Origin: Candidatus Omnitrophota bacterium
GTDB lineage: Bacteria; Omnitrophota; Gorgyraeia; Zapsychrales; JANLHA01
Direction of reading: 5' to 3'
NCBI GenBank assembly: GCA_040753435.1
Contig: JBFMEN010000003.1
Span: forward strand, 10,916-74,915
Length of the DNA stretch: 64,000 nt
The notes under the pieces were generated by a model. It worked only from the letters and a program-made list of their open reading frames with translations. It searched no databases and had not been told where the DNA came from. The translations under genes were made by a program, and so were the position numbers. This document shows positions 3,984-60,558 of this stretch, in pieces. The first letter of the stretch is position 1, and each line of letters opens with the position of its first letter.

Positions 3984-4883
3984 GTGATGATGAAGGTGCG
4001 TCAGGAAGCGATTGAGGATAAAAATAAGCGGTTATTTGCCTTTGAACGGGAGCTGGACCAGATTTCCCTGTCTTTGCTGAATATGTTTGATGATCGCAGA
4101 CTCAAGCTGTTTTCAATCCCGCCACATAAACGAATTTTTCTTTTCTTTCTGACCCGCGCGTTGAAAACCCATCAAGCAATCAAAATTCTGTGCCGTGAAG
4201 GTTTCGGACAAGATGCAGCCGTTTTGTTGAGAAGTCTTCTCGAAAACCTGATCAGCTTTAGATATGTTCTTCATCATTCGGAAGAAGCCGATGCACTTGC
4301 AGCGCGGTTTGTAGCCTACAAATGGGTCATTTTTCATCGTCATTTATGGGAACAGGAACGCGAGGAAAGGGAGAAAGGAGATCGGGAATACCGGTTGTTT
4401 GTTCAACGAAAAGAATTGATCTTAAAGAACTTTGAAGAGTTTAAAACGAAGTATCATATAAATTCAGGGCGCGGTCTCCTGACCTGGTCCGGTCGTACTG
4501 TTAAAGATATGGCCGGTATTGTCAGTAAAGATTTATTGAAAGAATATGAATCAATGTTCAGGACGTGCTCAAAGTTTACCCATCCAAGCATAATCAGTGA
4601 CAAAGAATACATGGTTATCGACGATGAAGAGATCGTTTTTTCAGTATCGCCTTCATTGATCGGTGTTGAAATAATCCTTTCGAAAAATATAAGTTATACT
4701 TTCGATGTCCTGTCGATCTTTGCCGGACTTTTTCAATTGAAGTGCGATGTCGTACTGAATGCATTTGAACGAAAGTTTAAGGCTTATCAGGCATCATTAT
4801 CGACCTCCACTTCAGGTACAGGTGCCGGAGAAACGGCTGCATCGATTAATCGGGAAAGTATTATTGTGTTTGAGAAGAATTAA
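3984..4883 (+). CDS. Hypothetical all-helical cytoplasmic protein (possibly DUF5677-like)
   Basis: 299 aa ORF starting MMMKVRQ, tightly spaced after the antiporter. No catalytic motif was recognised. Confidence 0.45.
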   Translation: MMMKVRQEAIEDKNKRLFAFERELDQISLSLLNMFDDRRLKLFSIPPHKRIFLFFLTRALKTHQAIKILCREGFGQDAAVLLRSLLENLISFRYVLHHSEEADALAARFVAYKWVIFHRHLWEQEREEREKGDREYRLFVQRKELILKNFEEFKTKYHINSGRGLLTWSGRTVKDMAGIVSKDLLKEYESMFRTCSKFTHPSIISDKEYMVIDDEEIVFSVSPSLIGVEIILSKNISYTFDVLSIFAGLFQLKCDVVLNAFERKFKAYQASLSTSTSGTGAGETAASINRESIIVFEKN

Positions 4884-5425: not shown

Positions 5426-8347
5426 ATGAAGAAACTATTAATTTTGATACTTGTGATGATCTTCTCCACACAATATTCTCCCGTGGTATGGGCTGATGTT
5501 GTCGCTTTGACAGATGCCCAGATGGACGAGATTGCTGCGGGGGATTGGGTTATCATCGCCCAGAATGAGGATGTTGTCGATGTATTTGACAACATCAACA
5601 GGCTTGAAGCGGGTGAATCATCACAGCAAGGGCTTAATGGCCTCAGTAACGTGAATGAGGTCAACAGCGCGACTGCCGTTCAGCAGAACGTTTCTGACTC
5701 CAACGAAGGGGTCATGGACATCACAACTCGCAATGAGGCCAGTGTCACGAATTATCAACCAAGAGATGAACTGACCGTGTCGGAGACGCGAACTATTTCA
5801 GCGAGCAGCGAGAATGAAGTCCAGCAAACACAAAGGGCAATTACTTCCGACTCATTGACCGCTTCTGATCGGACAACAGCAACGAATTCGGAAAGCGCCT
5901 CTTTGGAACAGCGGGCTTCAAGCTCATTGAGCACGCTTTCTGACCAGAGCGCGAATGCTTCAGTGAGTTTTGATCAGGACAGCTCTTTAGCGACTTCAAA
6001 CAATGCTTCGAGTGACGCAAGTTTGAGCGCGGTTGATAATTTTCATTTAGAAGATCATGCGGTGAATAATACTTCGGTATCCGCGGAAACCAGCGACGCT
6101 GCATCAAGCAGTGCGTCGTTGGACAGTAACGCTGCTGCGTCTGAAAGGCATACGACTGACCAAAATGCGAATCAGGCAGCTGATGCTTCTCTGGATACAA
6201 GTGCTGCGGCATCTGAAGATCACGCGACAGATCAGGCTGCGAATCAGTCTGCGTCGGCTTCTTTAGATACTAATGCTGCGGCATCTGAAGATCACACGAC
6301 AGATCAGGCTGCGAATCAGTCTGCGTCGGCTTCTTTAGATACGAATGCTGCGGCATCTGAAGATCACACGACAGATCAGGCAGCGAATCAGTCTGCGTCG
6401 GCTTCTTTAGATACGAATGCTGCGGCATCTGAAGATCACACGACAGATCAGGCTGCGAGTCAGTCCGCGTCGGCCTCTTTAGATACGAGTGCTGCGGCAT
6501 CTGAAGATCACACGACAGATCAGGCTGCGAGCCAGTCCGCGTCGGCCTCTTTAGATACGAGTGCTGCGGCATCTGAAGATCACACGACAGATCAGGCTGC
6601 GAATCAGTCTGCGTCGGCTTCTTTAGATACGAATGCTGCGGCATCTGAAGATCACACGACAGATCAGGCTGCCAGCCAGTCAGCTTCGGCAACTCTGGAC
6701 ACCAGTGCGGCTGCTTCGGAAGATCACACCGCGGATCAGACAGCCAGCCAATCGTCATTAACGGCAGTTGATGCCAGCGCTTCGGCTTCTGAAGACCATA
6801 CAACGGATCAGTCTGCTGACCAAAGCTCTGCCTCGACTGTTGATGCGAATCTTGCGGCTTCTGAATCATTTGCTGCCGAAACGGCATCAGATGCTTTTGA
6901 AGGCGATGGAGAAGTGGCATCAACCGCAGATTCGGTTAGTTTTTCTGGAACATATGAAGAGGATAACGGATCGATTGCCCTTGATGGCGATTATGCCGAA
7001 ACACATGCGACAACATCCGATACAAAAACTTATTCAACATCAAGCAGCAGTTCTACTTCTGATACCGCTGCTCTTGATGGTGCCTTGAGTACTGCAAACG
7101 ACAGTTCATCCTCCGCGGATGCATCGACATCGGATGCCGCTCAAGCTCAGGAATCATTAGCGGCTTCACAGGATCAGAATGCTTCGGCTTCGGCATCGAC
7201 AACTGATTCTGCAGCGGCCCAACAATCTCTGACTGCAGCAAGCGATCAGGATGCAGCTGCCCAGGCATCGACAACTGATTCTGCAGCGGCTCAGCAATCC
7301 TTGACTGCGGCAAGCGATCAGGATGCAGCTGCCCAGGCATCAACAACTGATTCTGCAGCGGCTCAGCAATCCTTGACTGCGGCAAGTGATCAGGATGCGG
7401 CGGCCCAGGCATCAACAACTGATTCTGCAGCGGCTCAGCAATCTTTGACTGCGGCAAGCGATCAGGATGCAGCGGCCCAGGCATCGACAACTGATTCGGC
7501 AGCAGCGGAGCAGGCTTTAAGCGCATCAAGCGATCAGGCGGCATCAGCTTCGGCAGCTACAACGGATTCAGCAGCGGCAGAGCAGGGGTTAAGCGCGTCA
7601 AGTGATCAGGCAGCTTCTGCTTCAGCGTCAACGACTGATTCGGCGGCGGCAGAGCAGGGGTTAAGCGCGTCAAGCGATCAGGCAGCTTCTGCTTCAGCGT
7701 CAACGACGGATTCTGCGGCAGCGGAACAGACGTTAAGCGCATCAAGCAGCAATAGCGCATCGGCTTCAGCTTCGACATTAGATGAAGCTGCAGCAAATCA
7801 GTCGCTGTCGACAACGGCTGATACAGCAGAAGATCATACGGCATCCGCCAATCAAGCCGTTGCCCAGAGCAGCGACCTGATCAATGATCATGATCAATCA
7901 GTGGATCAGGCCAGTGCGGATTCAGCCAGCAGTTCATTAGATGAAACGCTAACGGTATCTTTTGATCAGAACGCTTCACAGAATGACGTGGAAACTGTCG
8001 ATGCTGAGGAAGCAACAGAGGTTATTGCAGATTCAAGCAACGATGAGAGCCTTGACACCCAAAGCGATCTGAACACTGTCAGTGAAAGCACTAACGAAGC
8101 TTCTGTAACAACCACGGTAAGTGTCGTCACTTCTGACACGACAAATACAACCATTAATGAAAGCACCGGAAAGAGTGTCAGAAATGTGCTTGTTTTAAGC
8201 GGCGGGGCGCAAAGCGAGATGAACGTGATGAGTAATGTAAACGCCGTCAGTTCAGCCATTGCGGTTCAAACGAATGTTGCGAATGCTAACGGGATTAGCG
8301 GCAGCATCAGTCACACCAATGTGGCAAATGTTGTTAACGGTTTTTAA
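5426..8347 (+). CDS. Secreted repeat protein with Fap-like amyloid motifs at both ends flanking two 24-aa tandem-repeat arrays (FapC-like candidate)
   Basis: 973 aa with signal peptide MKKLLILILVMIFSTQYSPVVWA. It has an N-terminal LTDAQMDEIAAG motif, then LNGLSNVNEVNSATAVQQNVSDSN. Then come about 10 copies of ASASLDTNAAASEDHTTDQAANQS and about 8 copies of ASTTDSAAAQQSLTAASDQDAAAQ. The C-terminus is LSGGAQSEMNVMSNVNAVSSAIAVQTNVANANG..NGF. An RBS lies upstream. Confidence 0.7.
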   Translation: MKKLLILILVMIFSTQYSPVVWADVVALTDAQMDEIAAGDWVIIAQNEDVVDVFDNINRLEAGESSQQGLNGLSNVNEVNSATAVQQNVSDSNEGVMDITTRNEASVTNYQPRDELTVSETRTISASSENEVQQTQRAITSDSLTASDRTTATNSESASLEQRASSSLSTLSDQSANASVSFDQDSSLATSNNASSDASLSAVDNFHLEDHAVNNTSVSAETSDAASSSASLDSNAAASERHTTDQNANQAADASLDTSAAASEDHATDQAANQSASASLDTNAAASEDHTTDQAANQSASASLDTNAAASEDHTTDQAANQSASASLDTNAAASEDHTTDQAASQSASASLDTSAAASEDHTTDQAASQSASASLDTSAAASEDHTTDQAANQSASASLDTNAAASEDHTTDQAASQSASATLDTSAAASEDHTADQTASQSSLTAVDASASASEDHTTDQSADQSSASTVDANLAASESFAAETASDAFEGDGEVASTADSVSFSGTYEEDNGSIALDGDYAETHATTSDTKTYSTSSSSSTSDTAALDGALSTANDSSSSADASTSDAAQAQESLAASQDQNASASASTTDSAAAQQSLTAASDQDAAAQASTTDSAAAQQSLTAASDQDAAAQASTTDSAAAQQSLTAASDQDAAAQASTTDSAAAQQSLTAASDQDAAAQASTTDSAAAEQALSASSDQAASASAATTDSAAAEQGLSASSDQAASASASTTDSAAAEQGLSASSDQAASASASTTDSAAAEQTLSASSSNSASASASTLDEAAANQSLSTTADTAEDHTASANQAVAQSSDLINDHDQSVDQASADSASSSLDETLTVSFDQNASQNDVETVDAEEATEVIADSSNDESLDTQSDLNTVSESTNEASVTTTVSVVTSDTTNTTINESTGKSVRNVLVLSGGAQSEMNVMSNVNAVSSAIAVQTNVANANGISGSISHTNVANVVNGF
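6130..6870 (+). repeat. 72-bp in-frame tandem repeat array, about 10 copies (24-aa unit ASASLDTNAAASEDHTTDQAANQS)
   Basis: Near-identical 72-nt units (gcgaatcagtctgcgtcggcttctttagatacgaatgctgcggcatctgaagatcacacgacagatcaggct) read directly in the sequence. They show occasional synonymous or conservative variants (N/S, N/T). Confidence 0.85.
7170..7740 (+). repeat. Second 72-bp in-frame tandem repeat array, about 8 copies (24-aa unit ASTTDSAAAQQSLTAASDQDAAAQ)
   Basis: Units such as gcatcgacaactgattctgcagcggctcagcaatccttgactgcggcaagcgatcaggatgcagctgcccag are repeated with minor variation. The period is the same as the first array but the unit is unrelated. Confidence 0.85.
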
Positions 8348-8406
8348 CGAGTGTTTTGGGGGAAGGAGACTTCCCCCAAAACTTTTTAAAGAATGTAAGG
8401 TGAGCT

Positions 8407-9690
8407 ATGTATCGGAAAATTATATCTATGATGATTTCAATCTGTCTTTTGTGTTCTCATGGACCGCTTGCATTTGCCAGTTATGCCGTTGTTCTCACCG
8501 ATTATGAATTGGATCAGATTTATGCCCAGGGAGTGGATGTCAGTCCCGGCGATGTTTTAAGTTCAGCGACAGTTGAGACTGCTGCTCTTGAATCAAATCC
8601 TTTTACGGAAAGTGAAAACAATAGCGTAACGTCGGTTCCTGTGACACCGGATAATCCTGTTGGACCGGCAACCCCGGTCCTGCCGGATGGTCCGACCGGC
8701 CCGGTGTTACCTGATGGGCCTTTTCCACCGGAAAGTCCTGTGTTACCAGATGGACCGGTTTTACCGGGTGGCCCTTTTGGTCCGACATCGCCGAATGGTC
8801 CGGTAGTGCCTGACAGTCCGGCGCTTCCGGACGGTCCGTTTGCACCGGGAAGCCCTGTGTTGCCGGACAGTCCTTTTGGTCCGACATCGCCGAATGGTCC
8901 GGTAGTGCCTGACAGTCCGGCGCTTCCGGACAGTCCGTTTGCACCGGGAAGTCCTGTGTTGCCGGACAGTCCTTTTGGTCCGACATCGCCGAATGGTCCG
9001 GTAGTGCCTGACAGTCCGGCGCTTCCGGACAGTCCGTTTGCACCGGGAAGTCCTGTGTTGCCGGACAGTCCTTTTGGTCCGACATCGCCGAATGGTCCGG
9101 TAGTGCCTGGCAGTCCGACGCTTCCGGACGGTCCGTTTGCACCGGGAAGTCCTAACGGGCCGATCAATCCGGTATTACCAACAGGACCTGTTAGTCCCGA
9201 ATTGCCAAATGGACCGTTTGCTCCGAACAGCCCGACTCTGCCAAATGCGCCGGGGAGTGTAACAGCGCCTCAAGCGCCAGCAGCTCCCGGGGAAGTGGCA
9301 TTAGCGGATCCTGTTGCATTAACTCCGGTCGTTCCTTCGGCACCGGGAACGCCGTCTGCTCCAAACGTCCCGGCGGCTCCAAATCCACCTATTCAGCTTG
9401 ATGTTGTCGCGGGGGGAAATGGCGGCGGTTTTCAGGTGGCGTTAAACAACAGCAGCGGTCAGTCTTTGCTGCCGGAATCTTTTACATCAAATGCGCTGGG
9501 AGCGATCAACTCAGTAGATTTGAGCGGGGCGGCCCAGCAGAATCTTTCCGCCATGGTCAATGTGAATGCGGCGGGAAGCGTTGTTCCGGTGATGATCAAT
9601 CTTACGGTATTGATGAATTCCACAGTTGAGAATCTGAGCAATTTCAATGATTTGAATTTGGCAAATTACTCGACCCTGAGAGTCCAGTGA
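8407..9690 (+). CDS. Secreted proline-rich (collagen-like PDSP/PDGP) repeat protein, paralogous at its N- and C-termini to the 5426..8347 product (FapB/C-like candidate)
   Basis: 427 aa with a signal peptide (..CSHGPLAFA). It has an N-terminal VVLTDYELDQIYAQG motif, then four 33-aa repeats (PDSPFGPTSPNGPVVPDSPALPDSPFAPGSPVL). Its C-terminal LSGAAQQNLSAMVNVNAAGSVVPVMINLTV aligns with LSGGAQSEMNVMSNVNAVSSAIAVQTNV of the upstream protein. Confidence 0.7.
   Translation: MYRKIISMMISICLLCSHGPLAFASYAVVLTDYELDQIYAQGVDVSPGDVLSSATVETAALESNPFTESENNSVTSVPVTPDNPVGPATPVLPDGPTGPVLPDGPFPPESPVLPDGPVLPGGPFGPTSPNGPVVPDSPALPDGPFAPGSPVLPDSPFGPTSPNGPVVPDSPALPDSPFAPGSPVLPDSPFGPTSPNGPVVPDSPALPDSPFAPGSPVLPDSPFGPTSPNGPVVPGSPTLPDGPFAPGSPNGPINPVLPTGPVSPELPNGPFAPNSPTLPNAPGSVTAPQAPAAPGEVALADPVALTPVVPSAPGTPSAPNVPAAPNPPIQLDVVAGGNGGGFQVALNNSSGQSLLPESFTSNALGAINSVDLSGAAQQNLSAMVNVNAAGSVVPVMINLTVLMNSTVENLSNFNDLNLANYSTLRVQ
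8750..9150 (+). repeat. 99-bp in-frame tandem repeat, about 4 copies (33-aa Pro-rich unit)
   Basis: The unit ccggacagtccttttggtccgacatcgccgaatggtccggtagtgcctgacagtccggcgcttccggacagtccgtttgcaccgggaagtcctgtgttg is repeated nearly exactly. Confidence 0.85.
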
Positions 9691-9714: not shown

Positions 9715-10431
9715 ATGTCTGAGAAAAGTTGCAGAAAAACAATAAGGATTGACGTTTTAGTTCTTGTGGCCTTGGCGTTGGTCAGCATGTGTTTGTCCGA
9801 TGCCAGGGCCGCAAGTTTTTCGGTCGGCGGCGTCCGTCTTTATAAAAATGTGAAACCTCTGCGGGAAATCAAGCGGAGCAATCTAACTCCTCAGAGTCTG
9901 GATTTCAGCTGCGGGCCTGCCGGTCTTGCGACGCTGTTTCACTATTATTTAAGCGATCCCGTGTCTGAAGCAGAGATTATTACGGCGTTATTACAGACGA
10001 CGTCTTTGGAAAAGGTCAGGGCCCGTGGAGGATTTTCATTATTGGATTTAAAATCGTTTGCCGAACGGCGTGGGTACGTAGCAACAGGTTTTCAAATGGA
10101 TATCAGCGCCCTTCGCCAGTTGGGTAAACCGGTTCTGGTGCCGATTAAGTTTAAAAATTACCGGCACTTTGTCGTTGTTAAAGATGTGGTGAATGACCGT
10201 GTTTTTATTGCCGATCCTGCTTCGGGAAACATGTCATTGAAGACACATCAGTTTGAACGGATATGGTTACATGGAATTGTGCTGTTAATAGAACCATCAG
10301 GAGGCGGGATCCAGAAAAATAACGATTTAGAATTAAAGGAATCCGATCTTATTTTCGCAGATTATTCCCGATGGAGCGCAATCGTAAGGCCAAGTTTAAT
10401 TCGAACCGCAATTTACCCGACGGAGTATTAA
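9715..10431 (+). CDS. Secreted C39-like cysteine peptidase domain protein (FapD-like)
   Basis: 238 aa with a signal peptide (..CLSDARA). QSLDFSCGPAGLATLFHYY matches the Q..x..CG.A.L catalytic-Cys region of peptidase C39 (bacteriocin-processing, double-glycine peptidase) domains. Its size and periplasmic localisation resemble FapD. Confidence 0.7.
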   Translation: MSEKSCRKTIRIDVLVLVALALVSMCLSDARAASFSVGGVRLYKNVKPLREIKRSNLTPQSLDFSCGPAGLATLFHYYLSDPVSEAEIITALLQTTSLEKVRARGGFSLLDLKSFAERRGYVATGFQMDISALRQLGKPVLVPIKFKNYRHFVVVKDVVNDRVFIADPASGNMSLKTHQFERIWLHGIVLLIEPSGGGIQKNNDLELKESDLIFADYSRWSAIVRPSLIRTAIYPTEY

Positions 10432-11699
10432 TGGAATACTTGCAATATGGAAAAAGGGTGGCATGGGGCCTTGCCTTCACCGCCGCCGTTATGCTGGTAC
10501 ATGGAATTTTAAGTGAGGTAAGAAAAAGGAATGTTGAAGAATCAGTTTTGCGTGAAGAAGTCCGCCTTGAGGTGATTTCAGAGTTTGAGCAGAGGATGCA
10601 GGACATGATCCGTCTGCAGGTGGAAGAAAAAGTTGCGGCAATAAAATTGGTGAATGGCGGCAGGCTTCTCTCAGACTATGAGTTGAAAGAAAGCATTGCC
10701 GGAAATCCGGTTGAGTCACCAATAAACGCGGTTGCCCATTCCGGCGATTCCGCCGTTGTCGATCTTGTCATTAAAAGAGACGATGTTTCAGGGACAGATC
10801 AGAATGGTGAGGCGGAAGGTTTGGCAACGGAGCCGGTCACTGATAGCGAAATCGTCGAATCCATCGAGAAAACTTTGGTGCAACGGGGGAGTATCCTGCT
10901 TCCAAAAGGGACTTTACAGATGGAGCCGAGCCTTGTTTATGCCCATTTTTCCTCTAACCGGATCAATATCCAGGGGTTCAGCATTCTTCCAGTTCTCGTC
11001 ATAGGGGATATTTCAACGGAAACCGTGCGCAGGGATCTTTTTATTCAAACGCTTTCATTTAAATACGGGCTGATGCACAATTTTCAGACTGAACTTAAGA
11101 TTCCTGCGCGATATGAATACGATCGGATCACAGACACGGCCAGCGCTGAAAGCACGCGCAGTGACTTCGGGATCGGCGATGTGGAATTTGGTTTCAGCCG
11201 TCAGATCGGCTGGGAAAACGGAACCATTCCGGATCTTGTTTTTGCCATGGCCGTAAAAACTCCATCAGGAGAAGGCCCTTATAATCGTGACATCGGTTTG
11301 GGAACAGGGCACTGGGCTCTTCGCGGCAGCCTCATCGCGGCAAGGGCGAGTGATCCGGCAGTTATCTTCGGCAGCCTGAGTTATACCTGGAACATCGAAA
11401 GGGACATCGACAATTATGGAACAGTGGACCCCGGTGACTCCATCAGTTACAGCGTCGGGACCGCGATTGCGTTAAGTTATCAGACGGCGATCACATTTTC
11501 ATTCGATCAGAGCATCACCCTTCATATGGAAAGGAACGGGAGCAGCGTGTCGAATTCGTTTGTCAATGCCGCGAATTTAAGGACAGGGTTTAACTGGTCT
11601 TTGAGCGAGCGGTCTTCAGTCGATTTCGGAGTCAGTACGGGGGTCACCGAAGACGCTCCAGACGTGACTGTTGAAATACGTTTTCCCTATATTTTTTAA
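10431..11699 (+). CDS. Outer-membrane secretion channel candidate with an N-terminal coiled-coil and a C-terminal beta-barrel ending in Phe (FapF-like, Phenol_MetA_deg-type barrel)
   Basis: Its ATG overlaps the upstream stop (TAATG), indicating translational coupling. It has an N-terminal hydrophobic segment, a heptad-rich stretch (VLREEVRLEVISEFEQRMQDMIRLQVEEKVAAIK) and then alternating-hydrophobic beta strands ending in the C-terminal motif RFPYIF. The ORF-track start at 10371 was trimmed to the coupled ATG. Confidence 0.65.
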   Translation: MEYLQYGKRVAWGLAFTAAVMLVHGILSEVRKRNVEESVLREEVRLEVISEFEQRMQDMIRLQVEEKVAAIKLVNGGRLLSDYELKESIAGNPVESPINAVAHSGDSAVVDLVIKRDDVSGTDQNGEAEGLATEPVTDSEIVESIEKTLVQRGSILLPKGTLQMEPSLVYAHFSSNRINIQGFSILPVLVIGDISTETVRRDLFIQTLSFKYGLMHNFQTELKIPARYEYDRITDTASAESTRSDFGIGDVEFGFSRQIGWENGTIPDLVFAMAVKTPSGEGPYNRDIGLGTGHWALRGSLIAARASDPAVIFGSLSYTWNIERDIDNYGTVDPGDSISYSVGTAIALSYQTAITFSFDQSITLHMERNGSSVSNSFVNAANLRTGFNWSLSERSSVDFGVSTGVTEDAPDVTVEIRFPYIF

Positions 11700-53805: not shown

Positions 53806-56800
53806 TTGAGAAAAATTAACTGTTTAAAATTTCATGCTGCGGGAAAGGCCCTGACCTGTTTTTTGGCTTTTTCCTTTGTGTTTAATCCTGTTATTGGGTA
53901 TGCCCAGATTGGATTAAACCCGTCATCTTCCCCAGTTCTTCCTGTTCCAGGAGCCATGGTTCCTTTGAGCGGCGCTTTTGACCCGGCCATCATCAATGGG
54001 ATAAAGATATTTCCCGATAATCCTTTTCGATTAGAGTTTCTTATTGGTTCAGGACAATCGGAATTGGAAGGGGATGACTTCAGGGAAGAGTCTAAAAAGC
54101 TTGTTCGGTATTTTTTGGCTTCATTGACTGTTCCCGACAAGGAACTCTGGGTCAACTTATCGCCCTATGAAAGAGATCGTATTATACCCGAAGCCTTTGG
54201 TATTACTGAAATGGGCCGGGATTTGCTGGCCCAGGATTATTTATTGAAACAGGTAACGGCTTCGCTGATGTATCCGGACGGGTCTCCAGGCAAAGAATTC
54301 TGGCTCCGGGTTTCCGCGAAGGCTTATGAACAATATGGGGTCACCGATGTTCCCGTTGACCTGTTTAACAGAGTATGGGTCTTGCCCGACAGGGCGGTTG
54401 TTTATGAGCAGGGAGATACTGCTTTTGTGATTGAGAGCCGTTTAAAGGTGATGCTGGATTCGGATTACGAAGCCATGCAGGGTTCCCAAGAGCCCAAGAG
54501 CCCAAGTTCCAAAGAAAAAGATTTTACATGGGCACATGGGCACATGGGCACATGGGAACTTGACTCCGGAGAGCTTTCGAAACAAATCGTTCGCGAGGTC
54601 ATCCTTCCCGAAATCGAACGAGAAGTCAACGAAGGAAAAAATTTCGCCCCGTTGCGCCAGATTTACAATTCAATGATACTCGCCACATGGTTTAAACGAA
54701 GTCTGCGGGAAGGTTTGTTGAACAAAATTTATGTCGGAAAGAACAAGATTGAAGGGGTTGATATTAGTGACAAACAGGCCAAAGAGAAGATCTACCAGCG
54801 GTACCTGGAGGCATTCCAGGAAGGGGTTTATAACCTGGTTAAAGAAGAGTATGATCCTGTTCTAAAAGAGATTGTTCCAAAGAGATACACATCCGGAGGA
54901 ATGGAATTCGGGTTGCGGCTGGATCAAACGGTCAAGAATGTCACCAGTCTGTCTTCAGCGCAGTCCAAAGATTTCGCAATGCTGGTTAAAGACAAGGGGA
55001 TCAGGAAGGTTTCCGTTGATCTGGAAAGGTCCGCAAAGACAATCCCTGCTCTAAGTTATGCTATTTATCAAGATGCGGAATATATCAACGGAAGGATTGA
55101 GGGGGGAAGATTATTTCGTCCGGGAGGGGCAAAAGATATTTTTGAATTACGCGTGCACTTGGACGAAACGCCTTTGGATTTCTCTGGGGTTGTTAAAATG
55201 ATCCTTCCGAAAGACGGAACGTTAACTATGTTCGGAAAGGGATATTGGCAGGGTTGGGAGGAATACCGCGGCGAGCCGGTAATTATTGTTATAAACAACA
55301 GAAACGTGGTTGAAGTTTATAATTCACAAAATCAAAAGATTTTCCCATTCGGAAAAAATATTATTTATCCCGGAGGAACGTACCGGAATGGAAAAGTCAA
55401 TGGAACTCCGTTTAACCCGCATGGAGCAAGGACAAAAGTTACGATTAAAGACTATATCGGTGAAAACCCGGAATTCACCGGTGTTATCCACAGAGTTCAG
55501 CTCAATAATCATGGCGGGTTGCCTTCCATGGAATATCTGGGGGTCAAATGGGCTAATATGAGCGGCTATGAAAACGCCTTTGTTACGATCGTAGTCGAAA
55601 AAGGCCGGGCTACGGCGATCTATGATGCGAGCGGGAAACAGATCTTCCCTTTCCCCCATAATTATGTCCATTTTGGGGCTCAATACAAAGACGGAAAAAT
55701 TACCGGCGGCGTTTTGGCAACCCCGCACGGGATTTCCAGCCGTTACGAATTGAACAAGTTGTTATCAGCCGCGAGAAAAAAAGATCCCGGCATGTCCTGT
55801 GTCGTCGAAAAGGTGCCGCTGAATGATAAAGGAGGGCTGACGTATTTCCTGGGGGTCGGCAAGTATTGGGCAGATAAGGCGGGATACGAAAAGGCCCTTG
55901 TTACGATTGTCGTTACTAACGGAGATGAGATTACGGTTTATGATGAGAGAGGAAAGAAGATTTTCGAAAGACTGCGGAAGGAAGAAAATTTCGTTTACTT
56001 AAATGCTCGATATGAGGAGGGGAAAATCGTCGGAGGCACGCTTCTCAATGAACGGGGAACTTTTGACCGGCGGGAGTTAAATAAAATCGTGGCGCCGCAT
56101 CCCGGGTTTACCGGGGTCATTGACAAGGTCCGCTTGTCGTTTAATGGCGGGTTGGTGAAATTTCTTGGAAAAAATGTTTGGATGGGGATGACGGAATATG
56201 CCTATCAGATGGTCACAGTTGTTATGGCCGATGGGGAAGTGACGGAAGTTTATGACAGGAGCAACGAGCCAATATATCCGTTTAAAGAGAATTTTATATA
56301 CAAAGGCGCCCGTTTGGAGAAAGGGAAAATTATCGGGGGAGAACTTGTCAATCCCCAGGGGTTTCTGGACAAAACGTTTATTGGGAAGTATCTGAATGAA
56401 CCGGAAAATGAGGATTTTACGGGAGTTATTGAGACAAGGCTGCTGTTTGATGGAGGACTTCCCGTGGGTTTAGAGGAACCCGGATGGTCGTTACAGACGG
56501 AATATAAGCATAAATTTGTTTTTATAGTGAAAGAAAAAGGGAAGACAGTCGGAATTTATGATGAGGAAGGAACTAGATTATTTCCTTATGACGCAAATTT
56601 TGTTTATTGGAACGCTGATTTTATTGATCGGGAGATTAAGGGAGGAAAGCTCCTGACCCCGGCAGGGGTGAGAACCCGTAAGAATTTAAATGAACTGCTT
56701 GCTGAATATCCGGATTTTACAGGGATTATTACGAAGCTGCCGTTTCACGATTCAGGACGGCTCGGTCAAGTGAAAGATGGAATCTATCTTGACTATGTTT

Positions 56801-59800
56801 CGGCTATTCGTGGGAAGAAAGTGACGGTTAAGCTTGTCAAGGGAGCGGTTGTCGCGATTTACGATGAACGCGGATTTATGGTGTGGTCGGAAAACCGGGA
56901 GAGCGTCGGATTTGATATTTTGAATAGTCTATGGAAGTCGGGGGACCTTCAAAAGTTACTGGAACTTTTCGGTGAAGAGGGAACAAATCGTCTCTTGTTC
57001 TCTTTTTTTGATGATTTGACGCCGAAAAGTTTGATAGACTTTTTTCGGGATTACAGGAGTTTTGGGGTCCGGAAGAAGTTTCGGAAAAAGAAGTATGAAG
57101 AAACATTGAAGCCTTCGGAAATTGTTAAAAAGCTGGGCGCGATCGGCCTGCTTCAGAAACAATCCTCAAAGGCCGACTTTCAGGAAGTTTTACGGCAGCA
57201 GTTATTTTCGCTTGTCTATAGTTCTATTGTACGGGACTATAAATTCATCGATGCGATCGAAAAGGAGGTTAAGAGGAATTCGTTTGATCCGGTTATTAAA
57301 AATGCTTTTGAAGAGGTTATCCGCACTTACAGAGATCTGGGAAATTTTCATGTTGAAGGGATTCGATCCCCTACTCAATTAAGATTTTATCAAAAGCGCG
57401 GAGTCAAGTTTATTCTGGACGCTAAACGAGTTCTCCTGTCTGATCAATCGGGGTTGGGAAAAACTTTACAGGCCTTGACGGCGGCGGTTAATGCTTATGA
57501 TGGAAAAGGCGGGAAAAAGATTCTTATTATCTGTCCGGACGTATCCATCCGTAATACGTGGATTAAGGATATTCAACGTCATTTAAAAGGTGAACAGAAA
57601 ATTTATGTTGTCGGCAGCAAAGCAGACTTTAATTCGATTAAAAAACGGAACGATGCCAGGGACGCAAGGTTTATTATTGCCAATTATGAGGTTTTAAGAG
57701 GGGAAGATGCCGCCGGTCTCAGGCAGAATATAAAGGATTTGGGGATTGATTTTATTATTGCTGATGAGGGGCACAGGATTAAGAACAATTCCCAGCTGAC
57801 TGAGGCGGTCCAGGAGTTCCACGCTCCGTACCAGGTCCTGATCAGCGCTTCCGCCCAGCAGGGAAGGACGATTGCCAAAATTTTTAACCTGCTGAATTGG
57901 CTTTATCCGGAAAGGTATCCGGACAGAAAGGAATTCTTGCGGAAGTACGGTAATGCTGAGGGATACTGGCAGTTGAAGTCTGAAATGAGAGGCTTTATGC
58001 TGCGGAGACATAAATCAGACGTCCTGGCGGACATGCCGGAAATTAACGTGGAGTTTCTTCCCGTGCAGCTTAAAGGCGAACAACTGCGTTTATATCAAGA
58101 GATTGAGAAGGAGTTTGATGAGATTACTGAATCGGGTGATTATCTGCGAATGGGGGGAGTGATCCTGAATTTGATTCGAGTGGCGCTGGATACAGCCTTG
58201 ATCAGAGATATCTTTTTAAAAGATTTAGACGCTCAGGAAATTATTCCGGTTAAAGTGGGAGGGTATTACGGAAGAGTCGGAGACGTGGAATACAGGTTCT
58301 CCTTTTCATTTAAAGATCCGGTTTTTTCTTATACTGATTCATCAGGGAAGAAATATTCTATGAAGGTGAGGGATGGGGACATTGTTCAGATGGGTGGACG
58401 AACGTATGAAATAGGAATTAAGGAAAGAAAATCGGTTTCAGCGAAGTATGAGGCCCTTGACCGTATGGTCGATGACATTGTCGGTGAAAAAAAAGAAAGC
58501 ATGGTGGTTTTTACCGGCGCGCGAAAGGCTGTTTCTTATTTAAAGCAACGATATGAAAAAGAAGGATACGAAGTGGTCGGCATTGATGGAGATGTCAGCG
58601 CGAAAGCAAGGGAAGATATTCTGAAAAAGTTTAATACGGCCGGGAGACCGATTATCCTTGTTTGTACCTATCAAACATTGGGTGAATCCATTGATATTAC
58701 CGGAGCGCATTACGGGGTCTTGCTGGACAGCCCATGGCTTGACCGCGAACAGATCATGGACCGGCTGCATCGATTGGGGCAGCTGCATGATGTCTTGTTT
58801 ACGATTATTGTTGCAAAAGACACCGTCGATGAACATGTAGAGCAGGTCAATATGGAAAGCGATATGATCAAGAGCATTGTTCTTGATAACCTTAATGTTT
58901 ATAACAGGCAAAAGGAATTGAGCAAAAGATTAATTTTGGAGAAAGTCAGAAATAAAGAACTTTATTCCCAACTTAGAAGATTTCAAGAGAAGGTCCGGTT
59001 AATTGGAAGCGACGTGGAGAAAAAGGCCCGATCGGCAAGACTTTTGACTGAATATAAAAAAGGCAATCTGAGCGTTCTTTACGGAAACCATCGTTTCGCT
59101 GCAGAACTTGAAAATATAAACGGGGAGACCGTTTATCTTGACGGCCTTTTGGAGCTTGTGAATATGGTGAAGGATCTAAGTGCCGATTCAAAGAATGCGT
59201 TAAAAGAATTTTTCATTCAACGTTTTAAAGACGAGAGGCAGAAAGATGTCAGGGTTAAAGATATGATCCTGTGGGATATTTGCAATCAAATTATCCCCGG
59301 TTTTATTAATATCGATTATGACGGAAAATTGGAGTTTATGATTGAATGGGGAACTTATATATTAAGAAGGCTGATCGTTAACCCTGACCTCAGTAAGGAA
59401 GAGTTGATGACAGGATTGGGGGATGAAGCCGGAGACCTTTTTAATGACACCATGCATCTTCTCGACACATCGAATATCCTGAAGTTATTTTCTCTGATGA
59501 CGGTCATCCCTCAATCCTATTATTATGAGGGAGAGCTTCTCAGGTATGAACCGGCGATCTCTGTTTATTACGCGAATGGAAGAATCAGGTACTGGGATCA
59601 ACAGATCGTCGATAACATTGCGCCGGGATGGCAGATCAGCGACGGTGAGATTTATTCGGGAATAGAGGGGATTGAGCGGGAAGGCCGGCGGGTCCGGGCT
59701 CTGGAAGAATCAGAGGAGAAGCGTCTGGCCAATCAGATACGGCTGGGGAACAAGGCGGCGGAAAATCTTCTGGTGCGGGCGTATTTCCGAAATTTGAAAC

Positions 59801-60558
59801 CGATCGCGAAACGGGTCATCGAGAGCGGAAAGCTGGAGAAGGCATTCGGTTTAAAAGTCGCCGGTGTTGTGGATTTGGAAAGCCTGGTTTCCGCCGGGGA
59901 AGAGGCATTGGTAGATTTGATTAATGTCTACTCAGAGCACGAGATCTATTACAATACGCCGCTTAAAGATTTTCTCCGGAAACGGTTGAATCCGAGAATG
60001 TATTCGCTCGGGTTTCAGATAGCGGAAGAGATGTCCAGGTCGGTCGACCCTGAAGAATATTATCGAAGCGAATTGCTGAGCGAAGATCCTGTCGACCCAG
60101 GTAATTTGGAAGTGGGTGAACAAAAGAAAATTTTTGCCGGTCTGCTTGAACGGGAAGGTTTTAGCGATATAGAAGCTGAGATGATCATGCTTTTTGTTTT
60201 TGAAGGTTATTCGGAGAAGGAGTTGCTGGAAGAATACTTTCAAAACGGTTTAAGGGATCCGAGCGAACAGGACATACGGTATGTGGAGAATCTTATTGCC
60301 AGCTTTCAACATAAAATGAATGTTTTGGGCAAGGAAAACCTCCTTAATATTCTTGATGAAGGGCTTCCTGTTGATGAGGATGTGGGAGGTATCAATCTTG
60401 ATCCGGCGATCTTGAATATCGAGACCCGTGGCAGCGGTTTGGAGAAAGGCTTTTCCGATATTGATATGACACTGTTTGACGACTCTTCTTTCGCGGGATT
60501 TATTCCTGTGATTATCGACATTGCTCCTGCGAATTTATCAGGGTTTATAGCAAATTAG
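53806..60558 (+). CDS. Giant (2250 aa) multi-domain protein. It has a signal peptide, a conserved about 370-aa N-terminal domain shared with the downstream paralog, 6-7 novel ~90-aa tandem repeats, an SNF2-family helicase (DEXH ATPase plus helicase-C) and a C-terminal sigma-70/ECF-like region 2 plus region 4 module
   Basis: TTG start. Signal-like ..CFLAFSFVFNPVIGYA. N-terminal domain LVRYFLASLTVPDKELWVNLSPYERDRIIP...TWELDSGELSKQIVREVILPEIEREVNEGKNFAPLRQIYNSMILATWFK. Repeats carry V.V.D..G..I(F/Y)PF..N.VY..A.Y..GKI.GG.L..P.G...R.ELNK.....P.FTGVI.K. SNF2 motifs SDQSGLGKTLQAL (motif I), IIADEGHRIKN (motif II), LLDSPW..EQIMDRLHRLGQ (motif VI). C-terminal LGNKAAENLLVRAYFRNLKPIAKRV (sigma region 2.1-2.2-like) and AEMIMLFVFEGYSEKELLEEYF (region 4-like). 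Confidence 0.85.
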   Translation: MRKINCLKFHAAGKALTCFLAFSFVFNPVIGYAQIGLNPSSSPVLPVPGAMVPLSGAFDPAIINGIKIFPDNPFRLEFLIGSGQSELEGDDFREESKKLVRYFLASLTVPDKELWVNLSPYERDRIIPEAFGITEMGRDLLAQDYLLKQVTASLMYPDGSPGKEFWLRVSAKAYEQYGVTDVPVDLFNRVWVLPDRAVVYEQGDTAFVIESRLKVMLDSDYEAMQGSQEPKSPSSKEKDFTWAHGHMGTWELDSGELSKQIVREVILPEIEREVNEGKNFAPLRQIYNSMILATWFKRSLREGLLNKIYVGKNKIEGVDISDKQAKEKIYQRYLEAFQEGVYNLVKEEYDPVLKEIVPKRYTSGGMEFGLRLDQTVKNVTSLSSAQSKDFAMLVKDKGIRKVSVDLERSAKTIPALSYAIYQDAEYINGRIEGGRLFRPGGAKDIFELRVHLDETPLDFSGVVKMILPKDGTLTMFGKGYWQGWEEYRGEPVIIVINNRNVVEVYNSQNQKIFPFGKNIIYPGGTYRNGKVNGTPFNPHGARTKVTIKDYIGENPEFTGVIHRVQLNNHGGLPSMEYLGVKWANMSGYENAFVTIVVEKGRATAIYDASGKQIFPFPHNYVHFGAQYKDGKITGGVLATPHGISSRYELNKLLSAARKKDPGMSCVVEKVPLNDKGGLTYFLGVGKYWADKAGYEKALVTIVVTNGDEITVYDERGKKIFERLRKEENFVYLNARYEEGKIVGGTLLNERGTFDRRELNKIVAPHPGFTGVIDKVRLSFNGGLVKFLGKNVWMGMTEYAYQMVTVVMADGEVTEVYDRSNEPIYPFKENFIYKGARLEKGKIIGGELVNPQGFLDKTFIGKYLNEPENEDFTGVIETRLLFDGGLPVGLEEPGWSLQTEYKHKFVFIVKEKGKTVGIYDEEGTRLFPYDANFVYWNADFIDREIKGGKLLTPAGVRTRKNLNELLAEYPDFTGIITKLPFHDSGRLGQVKDGIYLDYVSAIRGKKVTVKLVKGAVVAIYDERGFMVWSENRESVGFDILNSLWKSGDLQKLLELFGEEGTNRLLFSFFDDLTPKSLIDFFRDYRSFGVRKKFRKKKYEETLKPSEIVKKLGAIGLLQKQSSKADFQEVLRQQLFSLVYSSIVRDYKFIDAIEKEVKRNSFDPVIKNAFEEVIRTYRDLGNFHVEGIRSPTQLRFYQKRGVKFILDAKRVLLSDQSGLGKTLQALTAAVNAYDGKGGKKILIICPDVSIRNTWIKDIQRHLKGEQKIYVVGSKADFNSIKKRNDARDARFIIANYEVLRGEDAAGLRQNIKDLGIDFIIADEGHRIKNNSQLTEAVQEFHAPYQVLISASAQQGRTIAKIFNLLNWLYPERYPDRKEFLRKYGNAEGYWQLKSEMRGFMLRRHKSDVLADMPEINVEFLPVQLKGEQLRLYQEIEKEFDEITESGDYLRMGGVILNLIRVALDTALIRDIFLKDLDAQEIIPVKVGGYYGRVGDVEYRFSFSFKDPVFSYTDSSGKKYSMKVRDGDIVQMGGRTYEIGIKERKSVSAKYEALDRMVDDIVGEKKESMVVFTGARKAVSYLKQRYEKEGYEVVGIDGDVSAKAREDILKKFNTAGRPIILVCTYQTLGESIDITGAHYGVLLDSPWLDREQIMDRLHRLGQLHDVLFTIIVAKDTVDEHVEQVNMESDMIKSIVLDNLNVYNRQKELSKRLILEKVRNKELYSQLRRFQEKVRLIGSDVEKKARSARLLTEYKKGNLSVLYGNHRFAAELENINGETVYLDGLLELVNMVKDLSADSKNALKEFFIQRFKDERQKDVRVKDMILWDICNQIIPGFINIDYDGKLEFMIEWGTYILRRLIVNPDLSKEELMTGLGDEAGDLFNDTMHLLDTSNILKLFSLMTVIPQSYYYEGELLRYEPAISVYYANGRIRYWDQQIVDNIAPGWQISDGEIYSGIEGIEREGRRVRALEESEEKRLANQIRLGNKAAENLLVRAYFRNLKPIAKRVIESGKLEKAFGLKVAGVVDLESLVSAGEEALVDLINVYSEHEIYYNTPLKDFLRKRLNPRMYSLGFQIAEEMSRSVDPEEYYRSELLSEDPVDPGNLEVGEQKKIFAGLLEREGFSDIEAEMIMLFVFEGYSEKELLEEYFQNGLRDPSEQDIRYVENLIASFQHKMNVLGKENLLNILDEGLPVDEDVGGINLDPAILNIETRGSGLEKGFSDIDMTLFDDSSFAGFIPVIIDIAPANLSGFIAN
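55270..56900 (+). repeat. Six to seven diverged tandem repeats of about 270 bp (~90 aa each) inside the giant gene
   Basis: The recurrent protein pattern (..T.VYD..G..IFPF..NFVY..A.Y..GKI.GG.L..P.G...R.ELNK.....P.FTGVI.KV.L...GGL..) was read from the translation. DNA identity between units is low, so the repeats are ancient. Confidence 0.6.

Follow-up and report, generated by a model that had tools for sequence, protein, structure and literature searches.

The stretch of DNA analysed here, 64,000 nucleotides (nt) of contig JBFMEN010000003.1 (positions 10,916 to 74,915) from a Candidatus Omnitrophota bacterium and called the window below, carries at 5426..8347 a gene for a protein of 973 amino acids (aa) that we term fibre A. 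Two tandem-repeat arrays with the same 72-nt period lie within this open reading frame (ORF). We describe the anatomy of the arrays, the selection acting on them, the synteny of the gene, and a mirror symmetry of lengths and hydrophobic positions about the centre of the protein. Judged from these features of the sequence, the arrays are probably the paired and matched arms of a long fold-back hairpin, extended by compensatory expansions, in a fibre subunit of the kind secreted by Fap and Fil systems. Coordinates are window positions on the + strand unless residues or the other strand are named.

The fibre A gene and its product

The ORF encodes, in order, a Sec signal, an N-domain, arm 1, a tip, arm 2 and a C-domain. 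The predicted Sec signal peptide (MKKLLILILVMIFSTQYSPVVWA, 5426..5494) was read from the sequence, is kept in homologues and would be removed by cleavage. It is followed at 5495..5542 by a motif resembling a double-glycine leader (DVVALTDAQMDEIAAG), a second candidate cleavage site, which is conserved in the family. The conserved N-domain extends to about residue 113 and includes a Q/N-rich motif, R1 (SSQQGLNGLSNVNEVNSATAVQQNVSDSN, 5597..5710), homologous to the motif R2 (NVLVLSGGAQSEMNVMSNVNAVSSAIAVQTNVANANGISGSISHTNVANVVNGF) of the C-domain (residues 920-973, 8183..8344), which is recognised by a C-domain profile hidden Markov model (HMM) at E = 7e-15. R1 and R2 share the pattern SQ..L..LSN.N.V.SA.AVQ.NV, and the N and C profile HMMs cross-match both ends of the protein.

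The middle of fibre A, or linker, is 806 residues long, consists to 79% of A, S, D, T and Q, and contains 132 acidic and 8 basic residues. The proposed arm 1 (residues 114-512, 5765..6961) is defined by its hydrophobic parity and an AlphaFold base strand, and the proposed arm 2 (residues 514-919, 6965..8182) by the same two features together with mirrored residue pairs. The tip region (residues 494-565, 6905..7120) is exactly 3 x 24 aa long and contains the mirror centre, residue 513, within the turn SGTYEEDNGSIAL (DNG) centred on D513 (nt 6962-6964). Six of the nine glycines and four of the nine aromatic residues of the linker fall in the tip, and residues 482-552, around the mirror centre, hold six of the nine in each case, the six aromatic ones falling at 482-536. 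The gene had been taken to encode a surface fibre protein, and a secreted product of the fibre type agrees with the Q/N-rich motifs that flank a low-complexity middle and with the genes for a FapD-like C39 peptidase and a FapF-like channel found downstream. Fibre A, its N- or C-domain alone, and the homologues P0003, P0004, P0012 and P0014 had no match in Pfam or NCBIfam at E <= 10.

Double-glycine leaders have the consensus L-S-x-x-E-L-x-x-I-x-G-G, with hydrophobic residues at positions -4, -7, -12 and -15. Fibre A fits this consensus in the form L-[ST]-x-x-[EQ]-[LM]-x-x-I-x-A-G, with hydrophobic residues at the same four positions: the leader reads V-V-A-L-T-D-A-Q-M-D-E-I-A-A-G|D, with I(-4), M(-7), L(-12) and V(-15), and A-G replaces G-G. 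The string 'LSDxxMDEIAAG[DE]W' is near-invariant across the fibre A family. Double-glycine sites are the canonical cleavage sites of C39 peptidases (PMC5557850), and their position after a Sec signal peptide, as in fibre A, is unusual. Both fibre A and the product of the next gene, fibre B, carry such a motif right after the Sec signal (5495-5542, LTDAQMDEIAAG; 8482-8523, LTDYELDQIYAQG).

Anatomy of the two arrays

Tandem Repeats Finder (TRF) and the layout of the units place array 1 at 6113..6904, with 11 units (10-11) of 72 nt or 24 aa (ASLDTNAAASEDHTTDQAANQSAS). Seven of these form a core (6185-6688; TRF: 6185-6729, period 72, 7.6 copies, 92% matches, 0% indels) whose copies are 86-97% identical at the nucleotide level. 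One degenerate unit upstream of the core and three downstream, beginning at 6113, 6689, 6761 and 6833, are put at 40-69% or 54-69% identity to it. Array 2 (7121..7840) has ten 72-nt units, the degenerate ones beginning at 7121 and 7769 (TRF: 7192-7682/7747, period 72, 6.8 copies, 86%). It is made up of sub-array 2a (7193-7480, 4 x ASTTDSAAAQQSLTAASDQDAAAQ; TRF: 7192-7503, 94%) and sub-array 2b (7481-7768, 4 x ASTTDSAAAEQGLSASSDQAASAS; TRF: 7493-7747, 85%). The four 2a copies are 88-96% identical, and 2b is a separate sub-family, with 68-89% identity within itself and 57-74% to 2a. Both arrays are in frame with the + strand ORF 5426..8347 and free of insertions or deletions (indels).

The original prediction of two 72-bp arrays with an exact period in one gene is thus borne out by TRF, and its consensus units match those found here. 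The very high copy identity that it gave to both arrays holds for the 7 + 4 core copies and not for the remaining units, put at 54-82%, so that high identity is limited to 11 of about 21. Two ORFs on the - strand, 6270..6923 (217 aa, opposite array 1) and 7053..7544 (163 aa, opposite array 2), were rightly taken as artefacts of the repeats, because their translations are purely periodic and they lie opposite a conserved gene.

Each array-1 unit carries one histidine in an acidic context (SEDHTTD), giving ten regularly spaced histidines in window 6113-6832 (residues 242-458). Together with a net linker charge of about -124, this spacing suggests binding of cations or metals.

Matched arrays in long homologues

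Most members of the fibre A family are 300-340 aa long and are arranged as N-domain, Ser-rich stretch, a central element ETLD...VDYDK, second Ser-rich stretch and C-domain. An origin of the repeat units from this short-form element was considered and dropped, as profile hits to it were insignificant in the window and in the long forms. Eleven homologues are long, namely L004 (992 aa), L006 (751), L007 (854), L008 (915), L012 (831), L020 (822), L024 (822), L023 (about 1130), L027 (829), L029 (778) and L014 (at least 568). Across the family the linker ranges from near zero to about 950 aa; P0040 (108 aa) is almost without a middle region.

Eight of the 11 long homologues have two arrays with a common period and similar copy number, the periods being 22/44, 24, 36 or 48 aa with the window included. 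The TRF periods of the first and second array are 108/108 nt in L004 (3.9/4.0 copies), 144/144 in L006 (2.4/2.4), 144/144 in L008 (3.2/3.3), 144/144 in L014 and L023, 132/132 in L020 and L024, 66/66 in L029 and 72/72 in the window. The period varies between genes, is constant within a gene and is always an even number of residues.

The placement of the arrays is symmetric as well. The distances from the N-domain to array 1 and from array 2 to the C-domain are 117 and 115 aa in the window (141 and 146 aa by raw TRF limits), 192 and 196 in L004, 113 and 114 in L006, 143 and 137 in L008, 138 and 134 in L020, 139 and 131 in L024, 125 and 125 in L029, and 251 and 243 in L023. These paired distances are correlated with Pearson r = 0.996 and the paired array lengths with r = 0.97, and over six lineages a Fisher p of 3e-6 was obtained; because these lineages share ancestry, the p-values overstate their independence. 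A tip motif related to that of the window, DGTY..DTCxDC..FEGTA, lies at the exact midpoint of the linker in L023, L024 and L029, and in L012 a more divergent form, STY...DCPGC, takes this place.

The pairing of periods might be explained by common descent only, both arrays having arisen from one ancestral array or unit by internal duplication or ectopic conversion, with no pairing needed. Between-array similarity of the units was found in L008 (z = 4.1), L004 (z = 3.05, p = 0.005) and L023 (p = 0.03), with p = 0.08-0.11 in others, and in the window the 'AS' starts of the array-1 and array-2 units are spaced exactly 14 x 72 nt. The window units themselves show no significant similarity: their best circular nucleotide identity is 47% (shuffle mean 38%, maximum 49%), and at the protein level gapped comparison gives p = 0.25-0.31 and ungapped rotation a borderline p = 0.01-0.09. 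The two units, which the original prediction called unrelated, are thus not demonstrably related; their nucleotide identity is at the shuffle level, and with protein values of p = 0.01-0.3 they may still be kin. Duplication moreover yields translational and not mirror symmetry, and tandem duplication of a segment of array plus flank fails to account for the layout, as it would call for an inter-array gap as long as both flanks together (x + y), which is seen in no case. Nor would descent explain why arrays of different period in different lineages stand at equal distances from the two terminal domains, why hydrophobic residues are mirrored outside the arrays as well, or why the 6-, 10- and 12-residue indels of the non-repetitive short forms described below are exactly paired. 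Common descent probably contributes in some lineages (L008, L004, L023), alone it could not yield the mirror layout, and it may hold in addition to pairing; as the whole explanation we consider it unlikely.

Mirror symmetry at the residue level

Hydrophobic residues in the arms keep to alternate positions. In window arm 1 (114-512) they number 30 against 7 at one parity relative to the N-domain; in arm 2 (514-919), counted from the C-domain, the bias is reversed, at 9 against 29. The bias is also present in the non-repetitive flanks (14/4 and 5/16). L004 has counts of 30/4 and 4/32, and whole-arm parity held in all eight other long proteins tested except L012. A period-2 phase held over about 400 residues indicates extended strands in which odd-length indels have not occurred, and all periods and indels observed are even numbers. 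Hydrophobic-moment spectra of the arrays were discarded in favour of the parity counts outside the arrays, as they were dominated by harmonics of the repeat period and their shuffle p-values were inflated.

The symmetry was quantified by counting hydrophobic/hydrophobic pairs at positions (i, S-i), with arm 2 shuffled as the null. The window has 23 mirrored pairs at S = 1026, set against a median of 4 and at most 11 after shuffling; only 13-15 pairs are counted at its side peaks, S = 1026 +/- 24k. Other proteins likewise give one sharp peak each (shuffled maximum in brackets): 19 pairs in L004 (9), 27 in L006 (16), 21 in L008 (9), 28 in L023 (15), 21 in L012 (14) and 9 in L007 (5). In the window this register sets the leucine of each array-1 unit (256 + 24k) opposite the leucine of an array-2 unit (770 - 24k), and ten of the pairs lie outside the arrays (116/910, 132/894, 144/882, 160/866, 168/858, 180/846, 182/844, 188/838, 200/826 and 208/818). 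The centre of symmetry, S/2, is residue 513, in SGTYEEDNGSIAL. The identical 24-residue period of the two units had been read as a hint of a structural constraint, for example one turn of a beta-solenoid; a constraint is supported here, and the solenoid turn is not, as the arrays are mirror-symmetric about a central turn.

Short homologues

In short and long forms alike, indels follow the same rule: each has a counterpart mirrored across a conserved tip. The two Ser-rich stretches of the short forms covary exactly in length (r = 0.96), the combinations being 48/53 (n = 20), 54/59 (n = 8), 58/63 and 60/65 (n = 1 each). Insertions of six residues are mirrored, lying 21 residues past the N anchor and 29 ahead of the C anchor. 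Of 56 cysteines in the short-form arms, 53 share one parity, and CxxxC pairs recur at the tip. No consistent set of mirrored disulfide partners was found in the short-form arms, a 43/47 pair occurring in two sequences only.

AlphaFold2 was run on a short form with a 33-sequence alignment. The mean predicted local distance difference test score (pLDDT) was 65, and the best part of the model (80-88) was the 'linker', predicted as long strands (E115-158, E161-177, E182-198 and E201-244). The sum of the outer strand limits, 115 + 244 = 359, agrees with the best mirror register of P0004, S = 357. A Foldseek search with this model matched only long beta-hairpin stems, with template modelling scores (TM-scores) of at most 0.18. 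Toxins were among these hits, and a reading of the short form as a pore was rejected at such scores.

Evidence against a hairpin, and a helical alternative

Besides the relatedness of the lineages compared, several points weigh against a hairpin in the window protein. Its AlphaFold model has a mean pLDDT of 45.7 and is uninformative for the arrays: array 1 appears as coil at a pLDDT of about 32 (30-35), and array 2a as one helix of 111 residues at 67-81. The only parts of the model that agree with a hairpin are the base strands E115-134 (pLDDT 72-84) and E894-913 (75-88). The linker, with its 132 acidic and 8 basic residues, offers only one hydrophobic residue per 24-aa unit, and a two-stranded ribbon of 400 residues on its own would hardly be stable unless counter-ions or stacking in a fibre supported it; that stacking (beta-arch or cross-beta) or bound cations stabilise the arms is speculation. 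Tandem arrays are missing from the long arms of L012 and L027, and in L007 one array only is clear; repeats are therefore one way to build arms and no requirement. Finally, the symmetry shows matched arms and would be compatible with pairing within or between molecules, and with beta or another extended form.

The helix predicted over array 2a raises the alternative that the arms pair as an antiparallel alpha-helical hairpin, a coiled-coil-like stalk resembling the arms of chemoreceptors or SMC proteins. Ala, Gln and Glu abound in the units, and the 22- and 44-aa periods of L020, L024 and L029 are multiples of 11, as would suit such a stalk. The hydrophobic residues, however, follow a strict period of 2 along the whole arms and not one of 3.5-3.67, and the arrays offer only one of them per 24 aa. 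For the short forms, long strands are what the model predicts with its highest confidence, and their cysteines keep to one parity (53/56). We regard helical arms as very unlikely.

Age and length stability of the arrays

Divergence between units was estimated by Nei-Gojobori counting as synonymous divergence (dS) and the ratio of non-synonymous to synonymous divergence (dN/dS). The core units of array 1 have a dS of 0.23 and a dN/dS of 0.11. Among the four units of array 2a there are 30 synonymous changes and no non-synonymous change (dS 0.34), and the 2b units have a dS of 1.13 and a dN/dS of 0.09. With dS at 0.23-1.1 and dN/dS at 0-0.11, the copies are of long standing, purifying selection acts on the amino acids that they encode, and the recent or ongoing expansion that had been proposed is not supported. 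Phase variability, also proposed, is excluded because the 72-nt period is a multiple of 3 within coding sequence and a change in copy number switches no frame. Near-perfect DNA identity between units, as in contingency loci, was not found: the core copies are 86-97% identical at dS 0.23-0.34, and others reach about 1.1.

The only comparison of relatives usable for array length is that of L020 with L024. At 82% nucleotide identity both proteins are 822 aa long, align without a gap through both arrays and share 711 of 822 residues. Rapid length variation of the fibre A arrays is therefore not supported by the sequences.

These data bear on the reading closest to the original prediction, in which the linker is a disordered and hypervariable acidic spacer, a 'fuzzy coat' like the FapC linkers, whose arrays arise by recent slippage or unequal recombination with copy number free to vary. 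Its low-complexity composition, the low pLDDT of array 1 and the family-wide range of linker lengths would suit such a spacer, as would the assemblies of relatives that break within the linker or arrays and the identical runs of at least 35 nt that core units still share. FapC linkers are moreover flexible and highly variable in length (PMC3792158; PMC12459412). The divergence between units under a dN/dS of about 0.1 and the gapless orthologues L020 and L024 speak against it, and a freely drifting spacer would not be expected to show mirror-symmetric array placement, array lengths and hydrophobic positions, or a period-2 phase over some 400 residues. A spacer of this kind is distinctly unlikely, and the arrays are probably not segments of randomly varying length. 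From the selection pattern and the symmetry, it is more plausible that they are old hairpin extensions maintained by selection and not a contingency locus for phase or length switching.

The copy numbers given here for the window are those of the assembly, and the arrays or their copy numbers could in principle result from collapse or expansion of a repetitive region. Such regions do cause trouble in relatives: contigs L016-L018 terminate inside the linker, and L019 has a 130-N scaffold gap inside an array that is resolved by L024, the two being 100% identical on either side of it (L019 9796-9925; L024 11622-11812). In the window, however, every copy has a distinct combination of substitutions, the frame is intact through 2.9 kb and the array lengths fit the mirror register of the non-repetitive flanks, and the same two-array design recurs in independent homologue assemblies. 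An assembly artefact is accordingly a far-fetched explanation. As repeats break assemblies, public data are limited in what they can show. Many database entries for the fibre A family are N- or C-terminal fragments, so that its abundance and lengths are under-reported.

Proposed mechanism

The gene 5426..8347 would encode the major subunit of an extracellular fibre system resembling Fap and Fil. Fibre A, given its signal peptide, would be exported by Sec across the inner membrane and, once in the periplasm, cut at VVALTDAQMDEIAAG|D by the C39 peptidase encoded nearby. By analogy with the Fap system (PMC5557850), it would pass unfolded through the FapF-like outer-membrane channel and assemble outside the cell through the Q/N-rich motifs R1 and R2. 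Its symmetric middle would fold back at residue 513, laying arm 1 antiparallel to arm 2, most likely as extended beta-strands, and the arrays would lengthen both arms in step. Because arms of this kind must stay in register, one could change in length only if the other changed by the same amount; hence the equal period, in even numbers of residues that keep the in/out alternation, and the near-equal copy number.

The fibre A family and its gene cassette

A profile search of 1.84 billion representatives found only 81 members of the fibre A family, counted as cluster representatives, and genome and metagenome scans place it in metagenome-assembled genomes of Candidatus Omnitrophota. The full 973-aa query gave no hits, low-complexity words swamping the candidates, and a concatenated query of the N- and C-domains succeeded. 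Exact-sequence look-ups for the window fibre A and channel returned no record. No sequence from the same species was present in the collections searched, the best identities being 47% for the N-domain and 56% for the C-domain, and an exact 35-mer from array 1 was absent from the metagenome collection searched. The patterns used in the genome scan are unmatched by the window's own sequence, and close relatives may thus have been missed. The FapF-like protein has 142 homologues at E <= 1e-30, none above 68% identity, and almost all of those with a named source are labelled Omnitrophota or Omnitrophica.

The Q/N-rich motif is repeated 18 times in P0003 (1283 aa) and 12 times in P0014 (1000 aa), at a spacing of about 55-75 aa and without a long hairpin. 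This looks like a solenoid-type architecture, parallel to the multi-repeat FapC of Acidithiobacillus and Vibrio. In L005, L009, L025/L026 and L028 there are two tandem paralogous short-form fibre A genes; those of L028 encode about 225 aa each, with much shorter arms.

Fibre A is the first gene of a cassette of four (fibre A, in one or two copies, fibre B, C39 peptidase, channel), whose make-up was the same in every locus examined. By profile search the cassette is present in the window and in 16 of the fetched loci, and by gene tables it looks the same in four more. No further conserved secreted genes were found between or after the cassette genes in the loci examined. The fibre B gene (8407..9690, 427 aa), for a second secreted protein with repeats, has a leader-like motif (VLTDYELDQIYAQG), a conserved C-terminus (NVNAAGSVVPVMINLTV) and a Pro-rich array of 3.8 copies of a 99-nt (33-aa) unit (8773-9153) with 98-100% nucleotide identity, copies 2 and 3 being identical. 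This array is far younger than those of fibre A and is a better candidate for real copy-number variation. Homologues of fibre B range from 151 to 778 aa (L019/L029 to L015).

The third gene (9715..10431) encodes a periplasmic C39 cysteine peptidase with its own signal peptide, a Pfam match to PF03412 (E = 5e-20), and Cys and His motifs FSCGPAG and YRHFVVV. The fourth (10371..11699) encodes a FapF-like outer-membrane beta-barrel transporter matching PF13557 (E = 7e-11). Each passes its own Pfam cut-off. In NCBIfam the peptidase matches FilB (2.6e-36, 125.4 bits; cut-off 475) and FapD (9.6e-35, 119.9 bits; cut-off 330), and the channel FapF (5e-41, 140.8 bits; cut-off 700) and FilC (1.5e-15, 57.5 bits; cut-off 630). 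By these scores the channel is a relative of FapF and not an equivalog. As listed, the channel ORF shares its first 61 nt (10371-10431) with the C39 gene upstream; its true start may lie further downstream, which could account for the missing record of the exact protein.

After the fibre A stop codon, at 8353..8392, lies a hairpin resembling an intrinsic terminator, with a 13-bp stem containing 7 G-C pairs and followed by TTTTT. Lying between fibres A and B, it may serve as an attenuator through which the major subunit is made in excess, as happens in pilus operons. A DUF5677 gene (3984..4883) immediately precedes the cassette, as it does in most related loci, namely L016, L017, L019, L025, L027, L028 and L029; several relatives have a gene for an AraC-type regulator after it, which is absent from the window. 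Elsewhere in the window an ORF of 2250 aa lies at 53806-60558.

Relation to known systems

In Pseudomonas, FapD is a periplasmic C39 peptidase required to secrete amyloid subunits through FapF (PMC5557850), and FapC is made of conserved repeats joined by linkers that vary strongly (PMC3792158). The window locus resembles this system in that a C39 peptidase gene adjoins a gene for a FapF-type barrel with an N-terminal helical region, and in that Sec-exported subunits are built of conserved, Q/N-rich imperfect repeats with linkers whose length differs widely between taxa (PMC3792158). Many-repeat variants also occur in both, Fap proteins of Acidithiobacillus and Vibrio having 4-16 repeats and P0003 and P0014 the 18 and 12 given above. 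It differs in that the subunits miss the FapB/C, FapE and FapA models, the peptidase and channel fall below the FapD and FapF cut-offs, and a four-gene cassette without fapA and fapE stands against the six genes of fapABCDEF. The subunits carry a canonical-looking leader of the double-glycine type that is lacking in Fap proteins (PMC5557850), and the linker is length-matched in mirror halves and under purifying selection, unlike the FapC linkers, described as flexible. The host is a member of the Omnitrophota, whereas Fap is reported only from Proteobacteria (PMC3792158). No paper linking Omnitrophota with Fap-type systems was found in the literature searched.

The Fil system of Acinetobacter, a putative pilus system, is also among the closest known, FilB being the best NCBIfam match of the peptidase (2.6e-36) and FilC a match of the channel (1.5e-15), with scores far below the equivalog cut-offs (125.4 against 475 bits and 57.5 against 630 bits). 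By homology, the locus is one that would work like Fap or Fil secretion and is a member of neither.

Matched arms about a conserved tip, the rule found in fibre A, have their closest known parallel in certain coiled coils. Symmetric heptad indels in chemoreceptor hairpins were reportedly described by Alexander and Zhulin in 2007, and the antiparallel coiled-coil arms of SMC and Rad50 follow the same symmetric-indel rule. The cytoplasmic hairpin of chemoreceptors (classes 24H-64H) evolves in length by symmetric indels in both arms (PMC5907407). Those hairpins, however, are cytoplasmic alpha-helical coiled coils with single-heptad indels and no sequence relationship to fibre A, which is secreted, has arms of a beta-type period of 2 and takes up whole arrays of 22-48-aa units as matched insertions.

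In the alpha C/Rib proteins of streptococci and the Sdr/Bap-type proteins of staphylococci, the repeat units are near-identical in DNA and vary in copy number between strains. Fibre A resembles them in having in-frame repeats of tens of residues in a surface protein, at which assemblies break, and differs in the dS of 0.23-1.1 between its units and in the unchanged length of L020 and L024. The fibre B array, with 98-100% identity, fits this class better. A long two-stranded antiparallel hairpin with alternating residues links the short-form model to the stems of pore-forming toxins, namely anthrax protective antigen, lysenin and aerolysin, and of the phi29/Andhra phage tails; with TM-scores of at most 0.18 this is a match of geometry only, and fibre A shows no sign of barrel formation or membrane insertion.

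Significance

Tandem repeats in surface proteins are usually taken as a source of free length or antigenic variation. Fibre A suggests instead that distant arrays can be coupled by a fold, so that only matched changes survive; if true, it would offer a case from nature in which tandem arrays far apart in one protein co-evolve in length. Equal period, equal copy number, mirror placement and mirrored hydrophobic residues together make up a signature of a long fold-back that can be searched for in sequence data. A hairpin whose length is set by repeat number would, if confirmed, be a tunable protein ruler or ribbon of relevance to amyloid-based materials. The substrate of FapD in Pseudomonas is unknown, and the leader of the fibres is a candidate substrate site for periplasmic C39 peptidases.

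Omnitrophota are mostly uncultured, often have very small cells, and their surface structures are unknown. The analysis defines for them an uncharacterised family of secreted fibres and a four-gene secretion cassette that is common in the phylum. There may be an even chance that Omnitrophota have, phylum-wide, an undescribed class of subunits secreted by FapF-like channels and C39 peptidases, with a giant beta-hairpin middle of up to about 480 residues per arm that grows by mirror-symmetric array expansions, the two arrays being selected as a pair.

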